A DNA stretch of 64,000 nt from Candidatus Nomurabacteria bacterium (GTDB lineage: Bacteria; Patescibacteriota; Minisyncoccia; Phycocordibacterales; UBA9973), in the NCBI GenBank assembly GCA_943356675.1, contig CALRFQ010000001.1, forward strand, positions 4,147 through 68,146, read 5' to 3'. Positions 13,825 through 63,139 of the stretch are shown here, one piece after another. The notes below the pieces were generated by a model. It saw only the letters and a list, made by a program, of their open reading frames with translations. It made no database searches and was not told the origin of the DNA. Position 1 is the first letter of the stretch. Every line of letters begins with the position of its first letter. The position numbers were made by a program, and so were the translations under genes.

Positions 13825-13891
13825 ATATTTATTCTACCTCACCCCCTACCCCCTCTCCAAATTTTTCAAATTTAGCGAGGGGAAAAAGAAA

Positions 13892-14034
13892 ATCCCAAAT
13901 TAGTTCTTAAGAAATGCCTTGCGCAGAAGCTTAGAAAATAAATGAGGTAGTCTGATTACTATTTTCTTGAGCGACGAGCAGAGAAATTTTCTAAAAAGAA
14001 AATATTCGTGCATTTCGAGAGAAGCTAATTGGGA
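13892..14034. repeat. intercistronic inverted-repeat element, divergent member of the ATCCCRTTAG family (between rpmE and prfA)
   Basis: Arms AAAATCCCAAATTAGTTCTtaaGAAATGC (13889..13918) and GCATTTCGAGAGAAGCTAATTGGGATTTT (14009..14037), about 27/30 complementary. Confidence 0.6.
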
Positions 14035-14042
14035 TTTTATAG

Positions 14043-21571: not shown

Positions 21572-22448
21572 CTAGTTTGTAAAATGTTTTAAGTTCTAGG
21601 AGTGCGACTTCTGTTTGCTTATCTTTAGCGACTTTATCTGTCGGTCCAGATCCTGGAGGATTCCCATGCCAACGATAATCGTATTCAAATGGTGTGACAC
21701 CTTTACTTGCGATTGTGCGTGCAATGATACATGAAGGCTTGTCTGGAATAGCTTTTGCGCGGTTTATTGCATTGTTTATATCTTCTACATTGTGCCCATC
21801 TATTTCTTCTGCATGCCAGCCGAATTCCTCATACTTCTTCGCCATGTCACCAAGGGGGAGTACGTCTTCAGTATTTCCATCAATCTGGATATGGTTGCGG
21901 TCAACTATAGCAATTAAGTTTCCTAATTTTTCTTTACCAGCGAGGAGAACTGCTTCCCATATATTGCCTTCATCATGCTCACCGTCTCCCATCACGCAGT
22001 AGAAGAACTTGCCAGAATTTCTGCCATGATCCATATTCTCAGCGATAGCCATACCGACTGCTTGTGAGAGTCCAGAACCAAGTGGCCCTGAAGAAGTCTC
22101 TACCATTGGTAGGAATTCGCGGTGAGGGTGGCCTTGTAGTCTTGATCCTAATTTTCTGAGAGTTAATAGTTCTTCAACAGGAAAATATCCAGAGTGCGCC
22201 ATTGCAGCATACATAACAGGGCAAATGTGGCCTGCGGAAAGTATAAAGCGATCACGACCCTCCCAGAAAGGCTCCGATGGATTGTGATTTAATTGATGAA
22301 AATAAAGCACAGCAAATACATCTGCCATATCAAGCGGTCCGGCAGTGTGGCCACTCTTCGCCTCTGTAAGCATTTCAATGATACTGATGCGGATTTTTGT
22401 CGCTAGTAATTTGAGTGTTTTGATTTTTTCGTCTGTAAGATTTTCCAT
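21555..22448 (-). CDS. transketolase, N-terminal subunit (TPP-binding)
   Basis: 297 aa; GHxxxxL...GDG(E)xxEG TPP-binding motif (VMGDGEHDEGNIWEA). Confidence 0.85.
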   Translation of the reverse strand: MENLTDEKIKTLKLLATKIRISIIEMLTEAKSGHTAGPLDMADVFAVLYFHQLNHNPSEPFWEGRDRFILSAGHICPVMYAAMAHSGYFPVEELLTLRKLGSRLQGHPHREFLPMVETSSGPLGSGLSQAVGMAIAENMDHGRNSGKFFYCVMGDGEHDEGNIWEAVLLAGKEKLGNLIAIVDRNHIQIDGNTEDVLPLGDMAKKYEEFGWHAEEIDGHNVEDINNAINRAKAIPDKPSCIIARTIASKGVTPFEYDYRWHGNPPGSGPTDKVAKDKQTEVALLELKTFYKLVEEGK

Positions 22449-22557
22449 CCCGTTAGAAGCAGATCGCGATCACTCGCTTCTTACTTGTTAAGTTATTAAT
22501 ATTTATTATATTTGTTTTCATGTTGTTTAATTTCGCGATCGCGGCTTCTAACGGGAT
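22447..22557. repeat. 111-bp intercistronic inverted-repeat element, family A copy 1 (rpe / tkt)
   Basis: Terminal IRs ATCCCGTTAGAAGC (22447..22460) and GCTTCTAACGGGAT (22544..22557), AT-rich centre. One arm contains the rpe stop codon and the other ends in the AT of the tkt start codon. 46 nt are identical to copy 2. Confidence 0.8.
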
Positions 22558-30657: not shown

Positions 30658-31210
30658 TGATATTATTTTCTTGATTTGTAATTGCTTTCTCGAGCTCTTC
30701 CACTACTTCTTTGTATTTAGGAAGCATGGTGATGTCGCTGACTCCCATAAATAGAAGTAAATCAATTGTAGGTGTGTATATAAATCTACGAGAGTCGGTA
30801 GCGTCTACCTTTTTATCAATTAATCCGCGTATGAGTAAGTTGCGGAGAATAAAACTAGAATTAACACCACGAATATAATCAATTTCATTTCTTGTTACTC
30901 CATTCTTATCAGGACCATTTTTATATAAAATAATTGAGAGTGTTTCAAGTGTTGCCTTCGATAATTCTTTAGTAATTTCATCTTTCCTCAATTTCTCAAG
31001 GAAAATACTTGCCTCTTTATTTGTGCCTAGAGTTACTTCGTTCTCAGTTTTAATTATTGTAAGACCCGTGCCTTCCTTCTTGGTACTAAGTGTATCAAGA
31101 GAAGCTACTACTTCTTCAATACTTACTTCCAAAATCTCTGCAATCTTTTTGATTGCAACTGGTTCACCTTTAAAGAAAAGTAATGCTTCAATTTTTGCGT
31201 CTAGTTCCAT
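30650..31210 (-). CDS. scpB: segregation and condensation protein B
   Basis: 186 aa; tandem winged-helix pattern, ALLFFKGEPVAIKKIAE. Confidence 0.8.
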   Translation of the reverse strand: MELDAKIEALLFFKGEPVAIKKIAEILEVSIEEVVASLDTLSTKKEGTGLTIIKTENEVTLGTNKEASIFLEKLRKDEITKELSKATLETLSIILYKNGPDKNGVTRNEIDYIRGVNSSFILRNLLIRGLIDKKVDATDSRRFIYTPTIDLLLFMGVSDITMLPKYKEVVEELEKAITNQENNINE

Positions 31211-31319
31211 CCCGTTAGAAGCAGATCGCGATCACTCGCTTCTTACTTATTAAACTATTAATTTTAATTTTATAAATTTTCATCATGTGTGTTTACGTGA
31301 TCGTGGCTTCTAATGGGAT
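31209..31319. repeat. 111-bp intercistronic inverted-repeat element, family A copy 2 (scpA / scpB)
   Basis: ATCCCGTTAGAAGC at 31209..31222 and GCTTCTAATGGGAT at 31306..31319. Positions 31205..31250 are identical to 22443..22488. The distal arm lies inside the scpA 3' coding end. Confidence 0.8.
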
Positions 31320-32082
31320 CCATACCTGTCATATTAATATCTTCAAAATTACTATTTTGAACAACATCAATTATTCCCTCTCTGACTAATTCTAGCATAG
31401 CAAGGAATGAAACAATAACATTCACTCTAACTTCCCTCTCACTACTATCAGGGCTACTCATTGAAAAGTCCTTAAACGACATATTTAATGATTTTTGAAT
31501 TCTGTTTGTAAGACGGTCTATCATTTCCTCAATATTTATGACAGTTTTTACTTCTACTTCTGGCAGTGGTATAGCTTTCTTCGGTAAACTTATAAGTACA
31601 TCATTTATGGCATTACTTAGCGTCTCAACCGTCAGAATTTGGTCTGGGCTAAAGATTACATTGTCCCACTTTCGCTCTGGTGCTGAGAAAATTATTTTTG
31701 TACCGAAATTACTCTTGATATCAACGCTAGCATTTTTAATGATTTGATAGAGTCTTAGTCTTGATTCAAGATCTTCAATTTTATCTTCTTCATCGTCTGT
31801 GAGTTCTAGGTTTGGAAGTAGTGATTTGGATTTGATCAGTATGAGTGTTGCGGCGATAACAATAAAGTAAGATATGTCGTGAATTTTTTTGTCGATAGAA
31901 ACATCTTCGGAATTATTACTCTGAAGACTTTTAATATATGAAATATATTCACTTGTAACTTCAGCAAGAGAGATTTCGTTGACAAATAACTTCCTACTTT
32001 CGATGAGTGAGAGAAGCAGCTCAAGTGGCCCCTCGAATGAGCCAGACTTAACTTTATATGTTTGTATAGTATTCTCTTCCAT
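31270..32082 (-). CDS. scpA: segregation and condensation protein A
   Basis: 270 aa; FEGPLELLLSLI motif; C-terminal 16 aa are encoded by the repeat arm. Confidence 0.8.
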   Translation of the reverse strand: MEENTIQTYKVKSGSFEGPLELLLSLIESRKLFVNEISLAEVTSEYISYIKSLQSNNSEDVSIDKKIHDISYFIVIAATLILIKSKSLLPNLELTDDEEDKIEDLESRLRLYQIIKNASVDIKSNFGTKIIFSAPERKWDNVIFSPDQILTVETLSNAINDVLISLPKKAIPLPEVEVKTVINIEEMIDRLTNRIQKSLNMSFKDFSMSSPDSSEREVRVNVIVSFLAMLELVREGIIDVVQNSNFEDINMTGMDPIRSHDHVNTHDENL

Positions 32083-36168: not shown

Positions 36169-36287
36169 TCCCGTTAGAGATGTGCTGTTCATATGTTTGT
36201 TAAATGTTAAATATAGATTATAGTGTATATATTAATTATTAGTTAATAAGAAACGGAAGTCTAAAGACTTCCTATCTCTAACGGGAT
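36169..36287. repeat. 119-bp intercistronic inverted-repeat element, family A copy 3 (dnaB / recR)
   Basis: TCCCGTTAGAGAT at 36169..36181 and ATCTCTAACGGGAT at 36274..36287 ending in the AT of the recR ATG. Inner hairpin GGAAGTC-TAAA-GACTTCC. Interior carries TTGTTA-N16-TATAGT. Confidence 0.8.
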
Positions 36288-43710: not shown

Positions 43711-44730
43711 TTAAGCTGAGTATTTTTCGATTAGTTTATTTGCTTCTGCGGGATTTGCTTTCATTTCAAGTAGTGCTGTGAGCATAAGAGGCACAACGAT
43801 TGTGGCATCGGACTCCACGACGAACATTGGAGTGTCTTTTGTGAGCTTGTCCCAAGTGATCTTTTCATTTGGAGTAGCACCTGAGTATGATCCGTATGAA
43901 GTAGTTGAGTCTGAAATCTGACAGAAGTATGCCCAAGGCTTAACTTCTTGCTCCATATCGTATTTAAGTGATGGCACTACGCATATTGGGAAGTCTCCAG
44001 CGATACCTCCACCGATTTGGAAGAAGCCAATTCCCTCTCCCTCAGAAAGCTTTTGGTATTGGTCATAAAATTCTCCCATGTATTCGATACCACTCTTTGC
44101 GATAGAAGCTGATGCATCTCCATGCTTTACGTGAGATGCGAAAATGTTTCCAAATGTTGAGTCTTCATATCCTGGAACTACTATTGGTATGTTGTTCTCA
44201 GCTGCAGCAAGTAGCCAGCATTCTTCTGCTTTACCTTCATGCTTATCTTTATCGATAGCTTGAATCAAGTCATAGAAGTACTCATGCCAGAATTTGCGAG
44301 TGCCATTCTTTGTAGCTTCTTCCCAAACTGGCACAATGTGTTTCTCCACAGCGCGGAAAGCTTCATCTTCAGGGATACTTGTGTCTGTAACGCGGCGCAT
44401 ACGATTCTCGAGTATCTTTGTGTCATCCTCTTTTGTGAAGTATCTGTAATCTGGAAAATCTTTGTATGAATCATGAGCAACGAGGCGGAAAAGTGATTCC
44501 TCAAGGTTCGCACCTGTGACAGACATACCACTGATAAGTCCTGCGCGGATAGCTGGGGCAAGCACGATACCAAGCTGTGCAGAAGACATAGCTCCAGCTA
44601 CCGCCCAAAACATCTTGCCTCCTTTTTCTGCATGGCGCCAGTAAGCGATAAGCGCATCGCGAGTAGCACGAGCATTGAAGTTCTTGTAATTTTTTAATAT
44701 AAATTCTAATGTGTTTAAATTATTTTGCAT
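43711..44730 (-). CDS. deoxyhypusine synthase-like protein (possible homospermidine/spermidine-forming aminobutyl transferase)
   Basis: 339 aa; N-terminal Rossmann region MFWAVAGAMSSAQLG...MSVTGANLEESLF aligns with the DHS-family TSNLISSGLR...VTTAGGVEED. Confidence 0.65.
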   Translation of the reverse strand: MQNNLNTLEFILKNYKNFNARATRDALIAYWRHAEKGGKMFWAVAGAMSSAQLGIVLAPAIRAGLISGMSVTGANLEESLFRLVAHDSYKDFPDYRYFTKEDDTKILENRMRRVTDTSIPEDEAFRAVEKHIVPVWEEATKNGTRKFWHEYFYDLIQAIDKDKHEGKAEECWLLAAAENNIPIVVPGYEDSTFGNIFASHVKHGDASASIAKSGIEYMGEFYDQYQKLSEGEGIGFFQIGGGIAGDFPICVVPSLKYDMEQEVKPWAYFCQISDSTTSYGSYSGATPNEKITWDKLTKDTPMFVVESDATIVVPLMLTALLEMKANPAEANKLIEKYSA

Positions 44731-44833
44731 CCCGTGTGAAATTTATTAATTAAGTAATATTGTAATTATAGCGTAATTTAACTTTTTGTACATTCCAAAT
44801 AGATTTATAGTTATTATAAATTTCTATCGGGAT
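44729..44833. repeat. 105-bp intercistronic inverted-repeat element, degenerate family A copy 4 (decarboxylase / DHS-like)
   Basis: ATCCCGTGTGAAATTTAT (44729..44746) and ATAAATTTCTATCGGGAT (44816..44833). One arm starts with the AT of the DHS-like ATG and the other ends at the decarboxylase stop codon. Confidence 0.6.
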
Positions 44834-46212
44834 TACCAGCCGAAGTTCTTACCCACCTCATCTGGAGTTTCTCTCTTACGTGCTACTACGATGTGTCCAT
44901 TCTCAGCCACGATCTTAAGTGGTGAAGAAAGCATACAGTGGTGTGCAGCGAGTGGGTCTTGGTATGCACCAGTATCGAGCACAGCTATATACATAGGCTC
45001 TCCATCATTCATATCGTAGTCTGGAAGTGTTACAGAGCCATGCACTCCTGTATAAATATCATCAGAATCACAAGATGACCCTGCTAGCCAAACATCCTGT
45101 AATTTATCATCGCGCTTATTATTTAGTGGAATCACAGACCATTTCTGCCCGATAGCCCAAGTATCGAGAAGGTCATTCATGAAGCTACCATCTATCACAT
45201 ACCACTTCTTGGCGTCAGCCTTTTTGCTTGAGATAAGTTTACTATCAATAATTTTAAAGATTGTGATTTGCGCTGGTGCTACTATGTAGCGGCCCCACTC
45301 ACACACGAGGTTTGGATGTGGCATTCCGCGCTTCTCAGACTCCTTCACAATAAGTGTGAAAATCTTATCCATCAATTTATCCACTGGGTAGCTACGATTG
45401 CGAGTGTAAGGGATAGGCATTCCTCCACCAATGTCGAGAGTATCAAGAGATGGATTCTTTTCTTTCACCTTGAAGTACACATCGAGTGCGTATTTTATCG
45501 GGCCGATCACATCAGAAAGCTTCTCAATCTGAGAGCCTATGTGGTAGTGAATTATTTTCAAATTCTTAAAGCTTCCCATATCAATGATCTCCTTTGCAGA
45601 AAATCCGAAGCGGTCTATCGGCTTGTTCCAGTACGAAGCAGCCTTCACTGGCATGTCTAGGCGGATACCCACATCATACTTTGAGTGCTGAAGGAATTTG
45701 AGCTCATTTGGGCCTTCAATAAGTGGGAAGATTTTCACACCTTTGTGCTGTAGATCGTCGATGAGGTTTATGTATTTGTCTGTCTTAGGACCTGAGCAGA
45801 GTATGCGGATGTTTGGGTTGAAAGATTCTTGCTCAAGCATCTTCTTCACGAGCCAGAGGTCGTTGAAAGATGAAGTCTCGAGATGAGCACCTTCAGATAC
45901 CATAGCCATAACCACTTCTTTATTTTGGTTCACCTTCATTGGGTAGTGGTAGAAGAACTTACCTTTATAACCTACTTTCTTTGAAAGTTGGAATGACAAG
46001 TCTAGGAAGTCCTCAATTCTTTCCTCAATAATGAATGGAAAAAGGATCTCAAGAGATGTGCCCATCTTCTCAGCTAAATAACGAATGTTGTAAATATTAT
46101 TTCCTTCTTTTACTACAAGGTCACCGTCTTTATTAAAGTCGAAATATTGTGTATTCCAATCTTTAGATCCGAGCTTCCATAATTTTCGGGAAGCAGATAC
46201 ATTTTTGTGCAT
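44833..46212 (-). CDS. PLP-dependent Orn/Lys/Arg decarboxylase (fold III), likely arginine decarboxylase
   Basis: 459 aa; HIGSQ and GGG-loop motifs; neighbour of agmatinase. Confidence 0.65.
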   Translation of the reverse strand: MHKNVSASRKLWKLGSKDWNTQYFDFNKDGDLVVKEGNNIYNIRYLAEKMGTSLEILFPFIIEERIEDFLDLSFQLSKKVGYKGKFFYHYPMKVNQNKEVVMAMVSEGAHLETSSFNDLWLVKKMLEQESFNPNIRILCSGPKTDKYINLIDDLQHKGVKIFPLIEGPNELKFLQHSKYDVGIRLDMPVKAASYWNKPIDRFGFSAKEIIDMGSFKNLKIIHYHIGSQIEKLSDVIGPIKYALDVYFKVKEKNPSLDTLDIGGGMPIPYTRNRSYPVDKLMDKIFTLIVKESEKRGMPHPNLVCEWGRYIVAPAQITIFKIIDSKLISSKKADAKKWYVIDGSFMNDLLDTWAIGQKWSVIPLNNKRDDKLQDVWLAGSSCDSDDIYTGVHGSVTLPDYDMNDGEPMYIAVLDTGAYQDPLAAHHCMLSSPLKIVAENGHIVVARKRETPDEVGKNFGW

Positions 46213-58998: not shown

Positions 58999-59077
58999 CT
59001 ACAGACTAGGTTCTAGTAGCTAGTGACTAGGTTGCCTTTTTAAGAATTTTATTTTGTTTTTTCTAGAAACTAGAACC
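58997..59077. repeat. inverted repeat CTAGGTTCTAG ... CTAGAACCTAG-like arms flanking 55 bp, between alaS and the PilM-like gene
   Basis: ACTAGGTTCTAGTAGCTAGTGACTAGG ... CTAGAAACTAGAACCTAACTACTAGAAACTA; CTAG-rich. Confidence 0.5.
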
Positions 59078-59090
59078 TAACTACTAGAAA

Positions 59091-60836
59091 CTAATCCAAT
59101 ACTGCTTTAATACGGCGGATGCCAGCTGCTACTGCTTCTTCTTTTTGAATTTTGAAATACCCAAGTTCTTTTGTATTTGTGACGTGTGGTCCTCCGCAGA
59201 ATTCTTTTGAGAATTGATTGCCACTTTCGTCTTCGACGAAGTATACAGATACAGTTTCAGGATACTTTGCTCCGAATTCCATCTGTGCACCAATCTTCTC
59301 CGCCTCAGCAAGCGGCATTTCTCGGCGAATTACATTCAGTCCTGCACTTATCTTCTCATTTACGAGGTCTTCCACCTTCTTTTTCTCTTCATCTGTAAGT
59401 TTGTGGTCGCACATGAAGTCTATACGTAGTCTCTCTTCTGTAATATTACTTCCTCTTTGCTTAATATCAGGGCTCACAACTTTCTGCAGTGCTGCTAAAA
59501 GCAAATGATGTGCGGTATGCAAACGAATTGTCTTCTCATTGTGATTTGCAAGTCCACCTTTAAACATTCCCGCAGAAGAAGTTTGTGATAGTTTCTGGTG
59601 CTCCGCCATTTTCTGATTGAAATCTTCTAAATTAATTTCAATTCCTTTTTCCTTAGCAATTTCGAGTGTAAGTTCTATTGGAAAACCGTAAGTAGTAGCT
59701 AGAACAAATGGATCTGTACCTTTTTCGAATTCTTTGAGTCCATTTGTGAGTGTTTGTCGGAATTTAGACTCTTCATTTGCAATTTCTTTCTTAATTACTT
59801 CACTATTTGAAAGTAGTTCTGGGTATACATCCTTGTACTGCTCTATAATAATGTCGACAATTTGAGAAAGCGCTTCATTTTTGAAGCCCAAAGTATCTGC
59901 AAACCTTACTGCACGGCGAAGTAATCGGCGTAGGATATATCCGCGTCCTGTGTTTCCGGGAATTGCACCGTCTGCCATTATAAATACGCTTGTACGAATA
60001 TGATCAGCTACAATTCTTTTTGCTTTTGTATTATCTACTGTTGAGTGTTCGTTTATTTTAGAAATAATATTTGAAAATAGATCAGTATCAAAAATATTAT
60101 TTTTACCCTGAACTGCCATAACGACACGCTCAAGTCCTGAGCCAGTGTCTACGTTCTGTTGAGATAATTTTCCGACAACTTTCCCATCCTTTTTCACATA
60201 CTGCATGAAAACATCGTTCCAAATTTCTACAACTTTCTGAGACTCATCGGCTTTCATGTATTCTTCCTTTGTAAGGTCACCAAGCCCTTCTGTTGTGACA
60301 TCATAAAACATCTCAGTGTCTGGTCCGCATGGGCCATTATCTCCCACACTCCACCAGTTTGACTTCGCTCCCATGAAATAAATTCTATTCTCAGGAATAA
60401 ACTTTTTCCAAATCTCAAACGCTTCTGTATCCTTTGGAGAATTTTCGTCACCCTCAAACACAGTTACATAAAGTCTATTTGGATCAAGCCCAAGTCCTTC
60501 ATCTTTTGAAGTTAGAAATTCATAGCTCCATGCTATGGCCTCATCCTTGAAATAATCTCCTAGAGACCAGTTACCCATCATTTCGAAAAATGTGTCATGA
60601 GTATTGTCACCTACTTCATCTATATCTTGAGTGCGGACGCATTTCTGAACGTTTACAAGCTTAGTTCCTAGTGGATGCTTCTCGCCCATTAAATACGGCA
60701 CAAGAGGCTGCATACCAGCAGTGTTGAAAAGCACAGATGGATCGTTCTCTGGCACGAGTGATGCTGAAGGTATTATTTTGTGGCCGCGCTTCTCAAAAAA
60801 TGTTAGGAAGCGAGAGCGGATTTCATTTGATTGCAT
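59091..60836 (-). CDS. alaS: alanyl-tRNA synthetase, compact form (catalytic + tRNA-recognition + editing domains, no C-Ala domain)
   Basis: 581 aa; class II motifs, editing-site HTAHHLL and CGGPHV. Confidence 0.9.
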   Translation of the reverse strand: MQSNEIRSRFLTFFEKRGHKIIPSASLVPENDPSVLFNTAGMQPLVPYLMGEKHPLGTKLVNVQKCVRTQDIDEVGDNTHDTFFEMMGNWSLGDYFKDEAIAWSYEFLTSKDEGLGLDPNRLYVTVFEGDENSPKDTEAFEIWKKFIPENRIYFMGAKSNWWSVGDNGPCGPDTEMFYDVTTEGLGDLTKEEYMKADESQKVVEIWNDVFMQYVKKDGKVVGKLSQQNVDTGSGLERVVMAVQGKNNIFDTDLFSNIISKINEHSTVDNTKAKRIVADHIRTSVFIMADGAIPGNTGRGYILRRLLRRAVRFADTLGFKNEALSQIVDIIIEQYKDVYPELLSNSEVIKKEIANEESKFRQTLTNGLKEFEKGTDPFVLATTYGFPIELTLEIAKEKGIEINLEDFNQKMAEHQKLSQTSSAGMFKGGLANHNEKTIRLHTAHHLLLAALQKVVSPDIKQRGSNITEERLRIDFMCDHKLTDEEKKKVEDLVNEKISAGLNVIRREMPLAEAEKIGAQMEFGAKYPETVSVYFVEDESGNQFSKEFCGGPHVTNTKELGYFKIQKEEAVAAGIRRIKAVLD

Positions 60837-61948: not shown

Positions 61949-63139
61949 CTATTTTACCACACCACCACCCAAGCAAATATCTTTATCGTATAGAACCACT
62001 GATTGCCCGCTTGCAAGTGCACCATCTGGCTTTTCAAATTTAATTTTTATTTCGTTTCCATTAACTTCAAGAATTTCAACTTTAAGAATTTCGCCATGGT
62101 AGCGAACTTGTGCTAAATATTTTTGCCCAATTTTAATATTTCCACGAATAACGGCATTTGTAAGTGTGACAAATTCATTATTTTTTTTATTTAAATCTTT
62201 ATCATGTGACACAATAAGGGTATTGTTATTTATATCTTTGGCCACGATGTAGTAAGGTGTATCGTTTGGTGTGGTCTTTATGATAGTAAATCCATGTCTT
62301 TCACCAAGTGTGTATAAGAGGACTCCATCGTGAGTGCCTATCTCTTCCCCATCCTCTGTTACCACATTTCCACTGCGCACATTTATGTAATGCTTAAGGA
62401 AGTCCTTCATATCAAGTGGGCCGAGGAAGCACACACCTTGCGAATCTTTCTTTGTAGCTGTCGGTAGATTATATTTTTCTGCCAATTTCCGTACTTCACT
62501 TTTTTTCATATGACCAATAGGAAAAAGTGTATGGGAAAGATCTTCTTCTGTAAGTGTCCAGAGAAAATATGATTGATCTTTTGTAGTATCTTGTGAGCGG
62601 AAAAGAAAATAGTTTTTCGATGCCTCCGCAGGCGCGTAGCTTGGTGTCGTCAAGAGTACTTCTCTTGACGACGAAGCGCCGAGGACTAAGCGAGGACTCC
62701 GCAGGAGCGGCTGAGCGGGCTGAGAAGAATTATTTTCTTTTCCGCTCACAACAGCATAGTGCCCAGTGGCAATAAAATCTGCACCATGCTCTTTTGCAAA
62801 TTTCCAAAAGACACCAAATTTCACTTCGCGATTACACATTACATCAGGATTTGGAGTGCGTCCTTCTTTATATTCTCTTATCATATAATCCGCCACGCCA
62901 CGCTTGTATGCATCTTCTGCATCACACTCAAGGAATGGCACATCTAGTGCTGCACACACCCTCATAGCATCACGCCTTTCATCTTTCCAAGTGCATTCTA
63001 TAAAGTCTGGAGTCCAAGTACGAATAAACACACCGACTACATTGTAGCCAGCTTCTTTAAGAATCGCTAAAGAGACAGAGCTATCAACCCCACCCGAGAC
63101 TCCTACAAATACAGTTTTATTTATCACTTTTCTCTTCAC
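61949..63139 (-). CDS. mnmA: tRNA-specific 2-thiouridylase MnmA (contains in-frame GC-rich palindromic insertion)
   Basis: 396 aa; PP-loop SGGVDSS, catalytic Cys (CNREVKF, GVCFLG), DQSYFL motif. Confidence 0.85.
   Translation of the reverse strand: MKRKVINKTVFVGVSGGVDSSVSLAILKEAGYNVVGVFIRTWTPDFIECTWKDERRDAMRVCAALDVPFLECDAEDAYKRGVADYMIREYKEGRTPNPDVMCNREVKFGVFWKFAKEHGADFIATGHYAVVSGKENNSSQPAQPLLRSPRLVLGASSSREVLLTTPSYAPAEASKNYFLFRSQDTTKDQSYFLWTLTEEDLSHTLFPIGHMKKSEVRKLAEKYNLPTATKKDSQGVCFLGPLDMKDFLKHYINVRSGNVVTEDGEEIGTHDGVLLYTLGERHGFTIIKTTPNDTPYYIVAKDINNNTLIVSHDKDLNKKNNEFVTLTNAVIRGNIKIGQKYLAQVRYHGEILKVEILEVNGNEIKIKFEKPDGALASGQSVVLYDKDICLGGGVVK
62595..62747. repeat. 153-bp GC-rich palindromic element inserted in-frame in mnmA
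   Basis: 24-bp terminal IRs GAGCGGAAAAGAAAATAgTTtTTC / GAAgAAtTATTTTCTTTTCCGCTC. Internal perfect palindrome GTCGTCAAGAG-TACT-CTCTTGACGAC. About 60% GC against about 35% background. Both strands translate to SGKEN...SSR(E)VLL(L)TT...KNYFLFRSQ. Confidence 0.8.

Follow-up and report, generated by a model that had tools for sequence, protein, structure and literature searches.

Correia elements of Neisseria, ERIC (IRU) sequences of enterobacteria and RUP elements of pneumococcus are MITEs (miniature inverted-repeat transposable elements) that lie inside bacterial operons. They are non-coding repeats of about 100-150 nt with terminal inverted repeats, present in many copies per genome between co-transcribed genes; their transcript can fold into a long hairpin, and short target duplications flank them. 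A family of repeats with these same features was found in a 64,000-nt stretch from a Candidatus Nomurabacteria bacterium (contig CALRFQ010000001.1, positions 4,147 to 68,146), hereafter called the window. Our subject was the spacer between a decarboxylase gene and the gene for a deoxyhypusine-synthase-like (DHS-like) protein, where a predicted hairpin brings the stop codon of the first gene opposite the start codon of the second. We consider it quite probable that this spacer is an old, mutated copy of a small, non-coding, MITE-like inverted-repeat element that inserts at start codons.

The upstream gene (44833-46212, minus strand) was taken from the list of open reading frames (ORFs) and encodes a pyridoxal-phosphate-dependent decarboxylase of the ornithine/arginine/diaminopimelate type (Pfam PF02784, 1.5e-20, and PF00278). 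Its stop codon TAA lies at 44835-44833, and the C-terminal ...FGW* is conserved in about 30 relatives. The DHS-like gene on the same strand (43711-44730; 339 aa; Pfam PF01916, 3.9e-39) begins with an ATG at 44730-44728; its start MQNNLNTLEF is common to relatives, and the closest named homologues come from Candidatus Nomurabacteria and Paceibacterota metagenome-assembled genomes. The spacer of 102 nt comprises a 17-nt 5' arm, TCCCGATAGAAATTTAT (44816-44832, minus strand), that begins right after the decarboxylase TAA, an AT-rich core of 69 nt (44747-44815, given no strand) without detectable similarity to the cores of other copies, and a 3' arm, ATAAATTTCACACGGGA (44730-44746, minus strand), whose final A is the A of the DHS-like start codon. 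Read as ATAAATTTCACACGGGAT (44746-44729), the latter overlaps this start codon, its last two bases and the next G forming ATG. The sequence-only reading that had drawn attention to the locus was correct in sequence and coordinates of both arms, and the pairing it described was reproduced by RNA folding as 6 bp, a 3x3 internal loop and 9 bp, with the final base of UAA and the first two bases of AUG inside the outer helix. A repeat search gave arms of 18 nt, complementary at 15 of 18 positions, with 69 nt between them. In a spacer-spanning transcript the ensemble pairing probabilities predicted for the three bases of AUG were 0.99, 0.97 and 0.77, and the arm duplex was estimated at about -17.5 kcal/mol; stop and start codons can indeed face each other across the paired arms. 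The bare hairpin at 44730-44832 was no better than shuffled sequence, with z-scores of -1.0 to -1.8 and 12-31 of 200 shuffles folding equally well.

The ends of this spacer recur in the window. The motif TCCCGWTAGAA occurred four times without mismatch, only at family copies, and together with three one-mismatch sites it marked three inverted pairs about 105-118 nt apart as well as the 5' arm at the 44730-44832 locus. A two-end test, in which the ends were to match TCCCGTTAGA/TCTAACGGGA at 17 or more of 20 positions, with a complementary inner triplet and a spacing of 60-125 nt, returned exactly four places (22448-22556, 31210-31318, 36169-36286 and 44730-44832) and none in 100 shuffles, which upholds the earlier assignment of the spacer to a repeated 'Family A'. 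Three of the four are canonical copies, scored here with a covariance model built from 108 copies outside the window. The first (22448-22556, minus strand; 84.3 bits, E 3e-17; fold z-score -8.2) lies between rpe and the gene for the transketolase N-terminal subunit; the rpe stop is a TAG within its 5' arm (22548-22556), and its 3' arm ends in the transketolase ATG. The second (31210-31318, minus strand; 71.4 bits) lies between scpA and scpB with the direct repeat ATGGA on both sides, and the scpA frame passes through the upstream ATG into the element for 17 extra codons (31270-31323). The third (36169-36286, plus strand; 66.6 bits) lies between dnaB and recR, at the recR start codon, in the arrangement dnaB TAA-tt-ATGGC-T[CCCG..CGGG]ATGGA. 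The canonical copies fold into very stable hairpins, with z-scores from -4.8 to -8.2. In all four copies the 3' arm ends ...CGGG/ATG at the start of the downstream gene. Gene calls at junctions such as scpA and rpe were seen to be altered by the insertion.

An exact-pattern scan of metagenomes matched at least 120 contigs; all counts over 145, 112, 111, 79 or 32 copies given below are counts among the matches listed. The elements measure about 80-125 nt and have the ends T-CCCGTTAGA(nnn)...(nnn)TCTAACGGG-A, and the 145 distinct copies came from hosts with a GC content of 31% to 65%. One end read CGGG/ATG in 111 of the 145, and this ATG opened a long ORF, or an ORF running off the contig end, in all but about seven. 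The opposite flank reads ATGNN-T/CCCG with the same NN: 69 of the 111 copies had a perfect 5-bp direct repeat and 14 more agreed at 4 of 5 positions, while positions 4-5 of the repeat agreed in 76 of 111, compared with 39.6 (maximum 51) after shuffling. The upstream ATG was lost in 32 of the 111. Copies that did not end in ATG also carried 5-bp repeats, such as GTAAA, ATAAA and ATTTA. The preferred pentamer was ATGAA, found in 63% of the copies as against 27% of background starts. In 29 of 111 copies the stop of the upstream ORF lay in the 5' arm or no more than 10 nt from it; in 13 copies the upstream gene ended in the TGA of ATGAA, and many copies sat at tight operon junctions. The family thus has the terminal inverted repeats, small size, lack of coding capacity and many dispersed copies of a MITE, and also its target duplications and empty sites; the 44730-44832 copy itself has no repeat, though its relatives are without the element.

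Rfam at the gathering threshold returned only a tRNA in the window, and at a permissive E-value only chance hairpin matches far below threshold, with no family match to the elements. No description of the family was found in the literature on the motif, on start-codon MITEs and on repeats of candidate-phyla bacteria, the coverage of which was incomplete, so this is weak evidence of novelty. One canonical copy with an ATGCG repeat (L137, 7644-7746) stood at a nitrite/sulfite-reductase-like gene whose nearest named homologues are from Acidobacteria, on a contig with a GC content of 65%; the family is therefore not confined to Patescibacteria. Three groups of homologous genes, 36-47% identical (L111/L174/L178, L120/L130 and L122/L126), each carried a copy at the start codon in different organisms, one of the groups resembling ribosome hibernation factor genes, as judged by the N-terminus alone, which suggests that such genes are hit again and again or else that the insertions are very old. 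Copies arranged in tandem with a shared middle ATGAA, or nested, were seen at L207 (2605-2837), L093 (8814-8937) and L204 (2792-2934), as would be expected if later insertions hit older copies. Several public contigs, from this species and from related ones, start or end inside an element, 24-62 nt from the gene start (L212, L215, L216, L219, L220 and L222), which indicates that the repeat fragments short-read assemblies.

The insertion itself could be followed at recR. In L221, whose RecR is 91% identical, the site is empty and reads ...CAATTTTAATT followed directly by ATGGACCCGATAAAT, whereas the filled site of the window reads ...CAATTTTAATT-ATGGC-T[CCCG...116 nt...CGGG]-ATGGA-CCCGATAAAT. 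The same alignment can be written as ..TTTTAATT and ATGGACCCG for L221 against ..TTTTAATT ATGGC T[element]ATGGA CCCG for the window. In L223 and L222 (RecR 83% and 85% identical) a different subfamily occupies the same ATG, in L223 with a perfect ATGGA repeat, and in L212 the RecR protein is identical and the element is absent. The comparison of empty and filled sites shows that the element was inserted with duplication of its target and that one start codon has been used more than once. None of the four window copies showed presence/absence or inversion polymorphism within the species. An agmatinase pair (L026/L027) was considered as another empty and filled site and rejected, as it is not a clean insertion and the 5' untranslated regions differ.

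According to the explanation we favour, a canonical element would enter a coding sequence immediately behind base 5 and duplicate ATGNN, leaving the native ATG and the promoter 5' of the element and a regenerated ATG with the intact gene 3' of the 3' arm. Insertion with duplication of ATGNN would make the 3' arm run into a start codon in every case. The complementarity of the arms is then a DNA-level property of the terminal inverted repeats of the element, and not a helix evolved for the operon. Ribosomes would start at the upstream ATG, often of leaderless type, translate a short ORF that leads through the element, melting the hairpin as they go, stop within the 3' arm at a TAA (position -7) or at a TGA lying over the ATG, and reinitiate at the regenerated ATG.

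A short ORF (MNPVR...) does enter the element from the upstream ATG, and the 3' arm TCTAACGGGATGA holds both a TAA at -7 and a TGA overlapping the ATG. In the frame of the upstream ATG the core was free of stops in 42 of 79 copies, compared with 12 and 11 of 79 in the other two frames and 14 of 79 in antisense; among copies with a decayed upstream ATG only 5 of 32 were open. The short ORF ended at the built-in stops in 38 of 79 copies, at the TAA in 22 and at the TGA in 16, and element lengths that would keep the frame were under-represented (13 of 79). Strict Shine-Dalgarno motifs were present at 11% of starts in the element-bearing contigs and likewise at 11% of the upstream ATGs, and the upstream ATG was preceded by a -10 box at a distance of 4-10 nt in 43 of 79 copies, compared with 29% among background ORFs and 12% among random positions. 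Across the metagenome loci with elements (L089-L208), 29% of long ORFs had a leaderless-type architecture, with TAnnnT ending 6-7 nt before the ATG. The idea that a Shine-Dalgarno sequence rescues the downstream ATG was rejected, as only 8 of 79 copies have such a motif, all of them in the AGG/CCT arm subfamily. Reinitiation would explain how insertions persist at the start codons of essential genes such as recR, scpB, transketolase and HPF-like genes.

The 44730-44832 copy fits this family by its ends. They match 8 of 10 and 9 of 10 positions of the two consensus ends (17 of 20), and the copy spans 103 nt with AAT/ATT as its inner triplet. The copy falls by its ends in the AAT/ATT arm subfamily, with a 5' arm CCCGaTAGAAAT that matches at 11 of 12 positions and a 3' arm ATTTCacACGGG. 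Against the family end T-CCCGTTAGAAAT the 5' arm agrees at 12 of 13 positions; the 3' arm has two differences from ATTTCTAACGGGA and has lost the built-in TAA. Altogether, three substitutions open the 3x3 loop and abolish this TAA. CGGGATG stands at 44734-44728, and its ATG opens the 339-aa DHS-like ORF. In the covariance model the copy scored 11.8 bits (E about 2.9), over the full length and with the correct strand and ends, compared with 67-84 bits for the other window copies, and it is therefore taken as a degenerate member, the most degenerate of the four. The upstream ATGNN repeat and the original spacer would have been lost, so that the 5' arm now abuts the conserved ...TGG TAA of the decarboxylase; a secondary deletion probably removed the old promoter-bearing spacer. 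The sequence-only reading had placed a stop and a start codon at the two feet of the helix. As to the start, the 3' arm running into ATG is a feature of the whole family; as to the stop, a stop codon abuts T-CCCG in only 4 of 111 other copies, and the 'stop at the foot' is accordingly an accident of this one.

Several points weigh against the reading of the spacer as an element remnant, or against parts of it. The full covariance model fails to separate the copy from noise (11.8 bits, E about 3), so that what makes it a member is the pair of ends together with the length and the ATG junction. It has neither a direct repeat (the 5' flank is GGTAA-T and the 3' flank ATGCA) nor a residual spacer, and one has to suppose either a secondary deletion or an origin of a non-canonical kind. 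In the metagenome scan an A had to follow CGGG, which enriches ATG junctions somewhat, the following TG not being imposed; a scan of viral contigs without the required A gave one canonical copy (L232) among 10 matches. The specificity for start codons is a further difficulty, ATGAA sites in the same contigs numbering 241 at ORF starts, 656 outside ORFs and 2055 inside ORFs. As an autonomous transposase partner, no long pairs of these ends were found in 1.55 Mb of loci, and solo arms were unconvincing. Finally, about half of the short ORFs (37 of 79) stop early in the core, and termination-reinitiation as the means by which the host genes stay expressed is drawn from sequence statistics.

The nature of the arms bears on whether the hairpin acts as DNA or as RNA. 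At three arm positions outside the fixed search pattern pairing was Watson-Crick in 93-99% of copies, with all four pair types at each position, as against about 50% after shuffling, and double-sided changes numbered 134 against 40 shuffled, a value reached in 0 of 500 shuffles. The second helix of the CGCG subfamily co-varies too. G-T mismatches were not preferred over A-C mismatches: the outer helix had 3 of the former and 9 of the latter, the inner helix 12 and 18. Paired ends bound by a transposase would co-evolve in the same manner, so arm co-variation is no proof of a selected RNA helix, and we read it as fitting the terminal inverted repeats of a transposon. The cores are hypervariable. 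Their orientation is not free: with the covariance model the canonical copies of the window reached 84, 71 and 67 bits in sense against 45, 36 and 36 in antisense, and related cores shared their orientation 14 to 2, from which it follows that the orientation of the element relative to the gene is fixed. The TATAAT-like boxes pointed out earlier are present in the core of the DHS-like spacer, but do not make a conserved promoter: promoter-like sites occurred in 25 of 112 cores in sense and 38 of 112 in antisense, at no fixed position. The candidate facing the DHS-like gene, TGTACA-N16-TATAAT (44765-44792, minus strand; 10 of 12 matches), does not rise above shuffles, the spacer holding one sigma70-like site against a shuffle mean of 1.2.

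Two routes of DHS-like expression can be envisaged for the spacer as it stands, and either or both may be used. A ribosome terminating at UAA would cover the first 12 or so nt of the 5' arm and thus unmask the AUG, in the manner of classical coupling by unfolding; or a transcript starting near 44758, from the promoter-like candidate in the core, would be without the 5' arm. On the first route, coupling of the DHS-like gene to the decarboxylase through ribosome unmasking is plausible for this copy, and a regulatory role of the helix is probably secondary.

The strongest rival makes this coupling the purpose of the helix: a dedicated structure, perhaps an exapted element remnant, would hide the DHS-like AUG and be opened only by ribosomes terminating at the decarboxylase UAA. 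The geometry described above, with the AUG predicted to be paired at 0.77-0.99 and an arm duplex of -17.5 kcal/mol, is what this rival requires; a terminator-like site was looked for in the spacer and none was found, the low use of Shine-Dalgarno motifs means that accessibility of the start codon should matter, and a stop abuts T-CCCG in four other family copies too. The decision came from the orthologous loci. Eighty genome loci with the DHS-like protein were fetched, and 27 clean syntenic decarboxylase-to-DHS loci were compared. Their spacers range from 22 to 260 nt, cannot be aligned and are without the arms. The short ones are plain AT-rich sequence, and in many of the long ones there are other hairpin or inverted-repeat elements; four kinds or more could be told apart, one of which occurs in both orientations. 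Even in the nearest other species, whose DHS is 94% identical, the spacer measures 207 nt and holds a different repeat element and no such arms, and a search for close relatives of the arms of the locus itself (GAAATTTAT) found none outside the species. Four further assemblies of the same species were identical to the window across the 160 nt compared over the spacer. Moreover, 16 of the 27 relatives have a TAnnnT (-10) box 4-10 nt before the DHS ATG, from which the DHS gene appears usually to have its own, independent promoter of leaderless type. The earlier reading had implied a coupling helix proper to this operon and had named the lack of arm co-variation at orthologous loci as the observation to look for against it; with the arms absent there, this is what was found. 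Nor does the structure itself favour the rival, as the fold is no better than shuffles, three substitutions weaken the helix relative to the family consensus, and the promoter-like site in the core would yield a transcript without the 5' arm. Judged from these comparisons, the hairpin is not a conserved helix or regulatory switch of this operon, and we consider a dedicated coupling helix unlikely.

In relatives the decarboxylase-DHS junction was seen to be a hotspot of unrelated hairpin repeats (L003, L005, L010, L011, L020, L035, L039, L050, L054 and L086). A repeat family (GCGAAGCAAATTATTTTATGAAAAAATGTCTGGCC...) lies in both orientations in these spacers of relatives. In L009 (3850-3986; DHS 93% identical) another element occupies the same junction as TAG/A-CCCGCACACTTATTTTTAT...ATAAAAATAAGTGTGCGGG-T, with a fold z-score of -6.7; it is an analogous but non-homologous CCCG...CGGG element, and its core, as read from the sequence, holds TTGCTA-N16-TATAAT. 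Other CCCG...CGGG families were noted at L108 and L134. Runs of CTAGGTTCTAG-like units occur near gene ends in the window (59004-59096) and in the spacers of L010, L054 and L086.

A second rival treats the hairpin as an element of RNA processing or stability, co-transcribed and cut by a double-strand-specific RNase, which would separate the cistrons or change their half-lives. Correia and ERIC elements offer an analogy of co-transcribed inverted repeats in RNA processing. The canonical copies are very stable (z-scores -4.8 to -8.2) and lie inside operons, with the upstream stop near or in the 5' arm in 29 of 111 copies. Against this, the arms show no tolerance of G-U and no sign of selection on RNA pairing, the open short ORF argues for translation through the RNA and not for cutting, and the helix of the 44730-44832 copy is weak. 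We hold processing to be quite improbable.

An invertible promoter, in which a site-specific recombinase would flip the AT-rich core and so switch DHS-like transcription, was suggested by inverted repeats flanking an AT-rich segment with a promoter-like site and by the comparable L009 spacer with its TTGCTA-N16-TATAAT. Five independent assemblies from the species show the spacer in a single orientation, family copies all face their genes the same way round, only 69 nt separate the arms, the arms are mismatched, and the direct repeats and the empty site indicate transposition; inversion thus has very little in its favour. Equally faint is the case for intron-like excision at the RNA level, in which the hairpin and one ATGNN would be removed from the mRNA at the helix base to restore a single start codon. 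The 5-bp direct repeats do lie exactly at the helix base, and removal in any register would restore the gene; against it stand hypervariable cores without a conserved catalytic core, the lack of any Rfam match, pairing that is Watson-Crick only, an upstream ATG that has decayed in 32 of 111 copies, and an upstream frame kept open through the element, which is sensible only if it is translated. That the spacer is a chance inverted repeat in AT-rich sequence is next to incredible: its fold is no better than shuffles and the window has 41 pairs of inverted repeats that are 14 nt or longer and lie no more than 200 nt apart, but both its ends match a family consensus found otherwise only at three bona fide copies and never in 100 shuffles, and its length and ATG junction fit the family.

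Two known kinds of site were considered and rejected as well. For an integron attC site the order is reversed, with GTTAGAA 5' and TTCTAAC 3' instead of RYYYAAC by the upstream gene and GTTRRRY 3', and the flanks are syntenic housekeeping genes. The cyanobacterial HIP1 sequence GCGATCGC occurs inside the copy at 22447, but the window holds only two such sites and the host genome is of Patescibacteria type.

Returning to the element reading, we would go one step further, though here doubt slightly outweighs belief: the family may be an undescribed 'stealth' mobile element that targets start codons, perhaps those of leaderless genes, duplicates ATGNN, carries its own signals for survival of the host gene (an open passage for ribosomes and stops at the new ATG) and lives in more than one phylum, reaching from Patescibacteria to a contig of Acidobacteria-like character. 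In that case the spacer between the decarboxylase and DHS-like genes would be a domesticated remnant, the stop of the upstream gene having replaced the short ORF. For annotation, it means that a hairpin with stop opposite start should not be recorded as a conserved polyamine-gene regulator. Small elements with inverted repeats are frequent, and the use of the start codon as insertion point would be a new strategy in very compact genomes. Gene calling in uncultivated bacteria is affected, with two ATGs about 120 nt apart and upstream genes extended into the element (scpA and rpe), and so is assembly, with contigs breaking inside the element. The copies are also natural test cases for leaderless initiation and reinitiation where Shine-Dalgarno use is almost nil.

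The genes neighbouring the locus are dnaK, dnaJ, a GNAT-domain gene, an agmatinase gene and an EamA transporter gene. Two other repeats of the window were recorded. At 13889-14038, between the rpmE stop and a release-factor gene, a segment has inverted arms of 29 nt (AAAATCCCAATTAGC.../...GCTAATTGGGATTTT), the ends of which (ATCCCA) resemble those of the start-codon family and are distinct from them. At 62591-62751, inside the MnmA gene (ORF 61949-63139, minus strand), an inverted repeat has a GC-rich centre and arms of 45 nt that are 80% complementary. It lengthens the protein in frame by about 50 aa, between GHYA and DTTKDQSYFL, and divides the PF03054 match into two; this insertion resembles the in-frame palindromic insertions of Rickettsia.

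Among the known systems, T4 gene 60 bypass, the 'byp' elements of Magnusiomyces mitochondria and the Rickettsia palindromic elements are insertions tolerated in coding regions. Like the present family, these are small insertions, mobile or palindromic, that leave the gene functional and have short repeats at their edges, take-off and landing codons there and ATGNN here. They differ in that the window family gives no evidence of hopping, its statistics pointing to translation of a short ORF and reinitiation, and in that its site is codon 2 and not the body of the protein. Invertons likewise have inverted repeats bracketing an AT-rich segment beside a gene start, whereas the window family has one orientation, direct repeats, an empty site and no conserved promoter.

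Termination-reinitiation coupling is known from operon junctions of the ATGA and TAAnnnnATG types, and the 3' arm of the window family similarly puts a TAA at -7 and a TGA over the ATG. The difference is that here the junction is carried by a mobile element and follows a short ORF encoded by that element, where it would serve the function proposed above. Among insertion sequences, IS1380 ends begin with CC, and we know of no start-codon specificity for IS1380/ISEcp1-type or Tn3-type elements. They and the window family have in common a 5-bp AT-rich target duplication, which we take as a lead only; ISEcp1 has been reported to duplicate TATGA (PMC2887853). The end sequences of the window family are like those of IS1380/ISEcp1 and Tn3-type elements only in CC, and no transposase was found for it.

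With the Correia, ERIC and RUP elements the window family has no sequence relation, and it duplicates the 5 bp ATGNN and not TA. Unlike them, it uses the start codon as insertion point, keeps a fixed orientation and carries an open short upstream ORF. Compared with the described families that we found, the features that appear from the sequences to be new are thus the insertion point at the start codon, the ATGNN duplication, the fixed orientation and a short ORF that stays open up to built-in stops.

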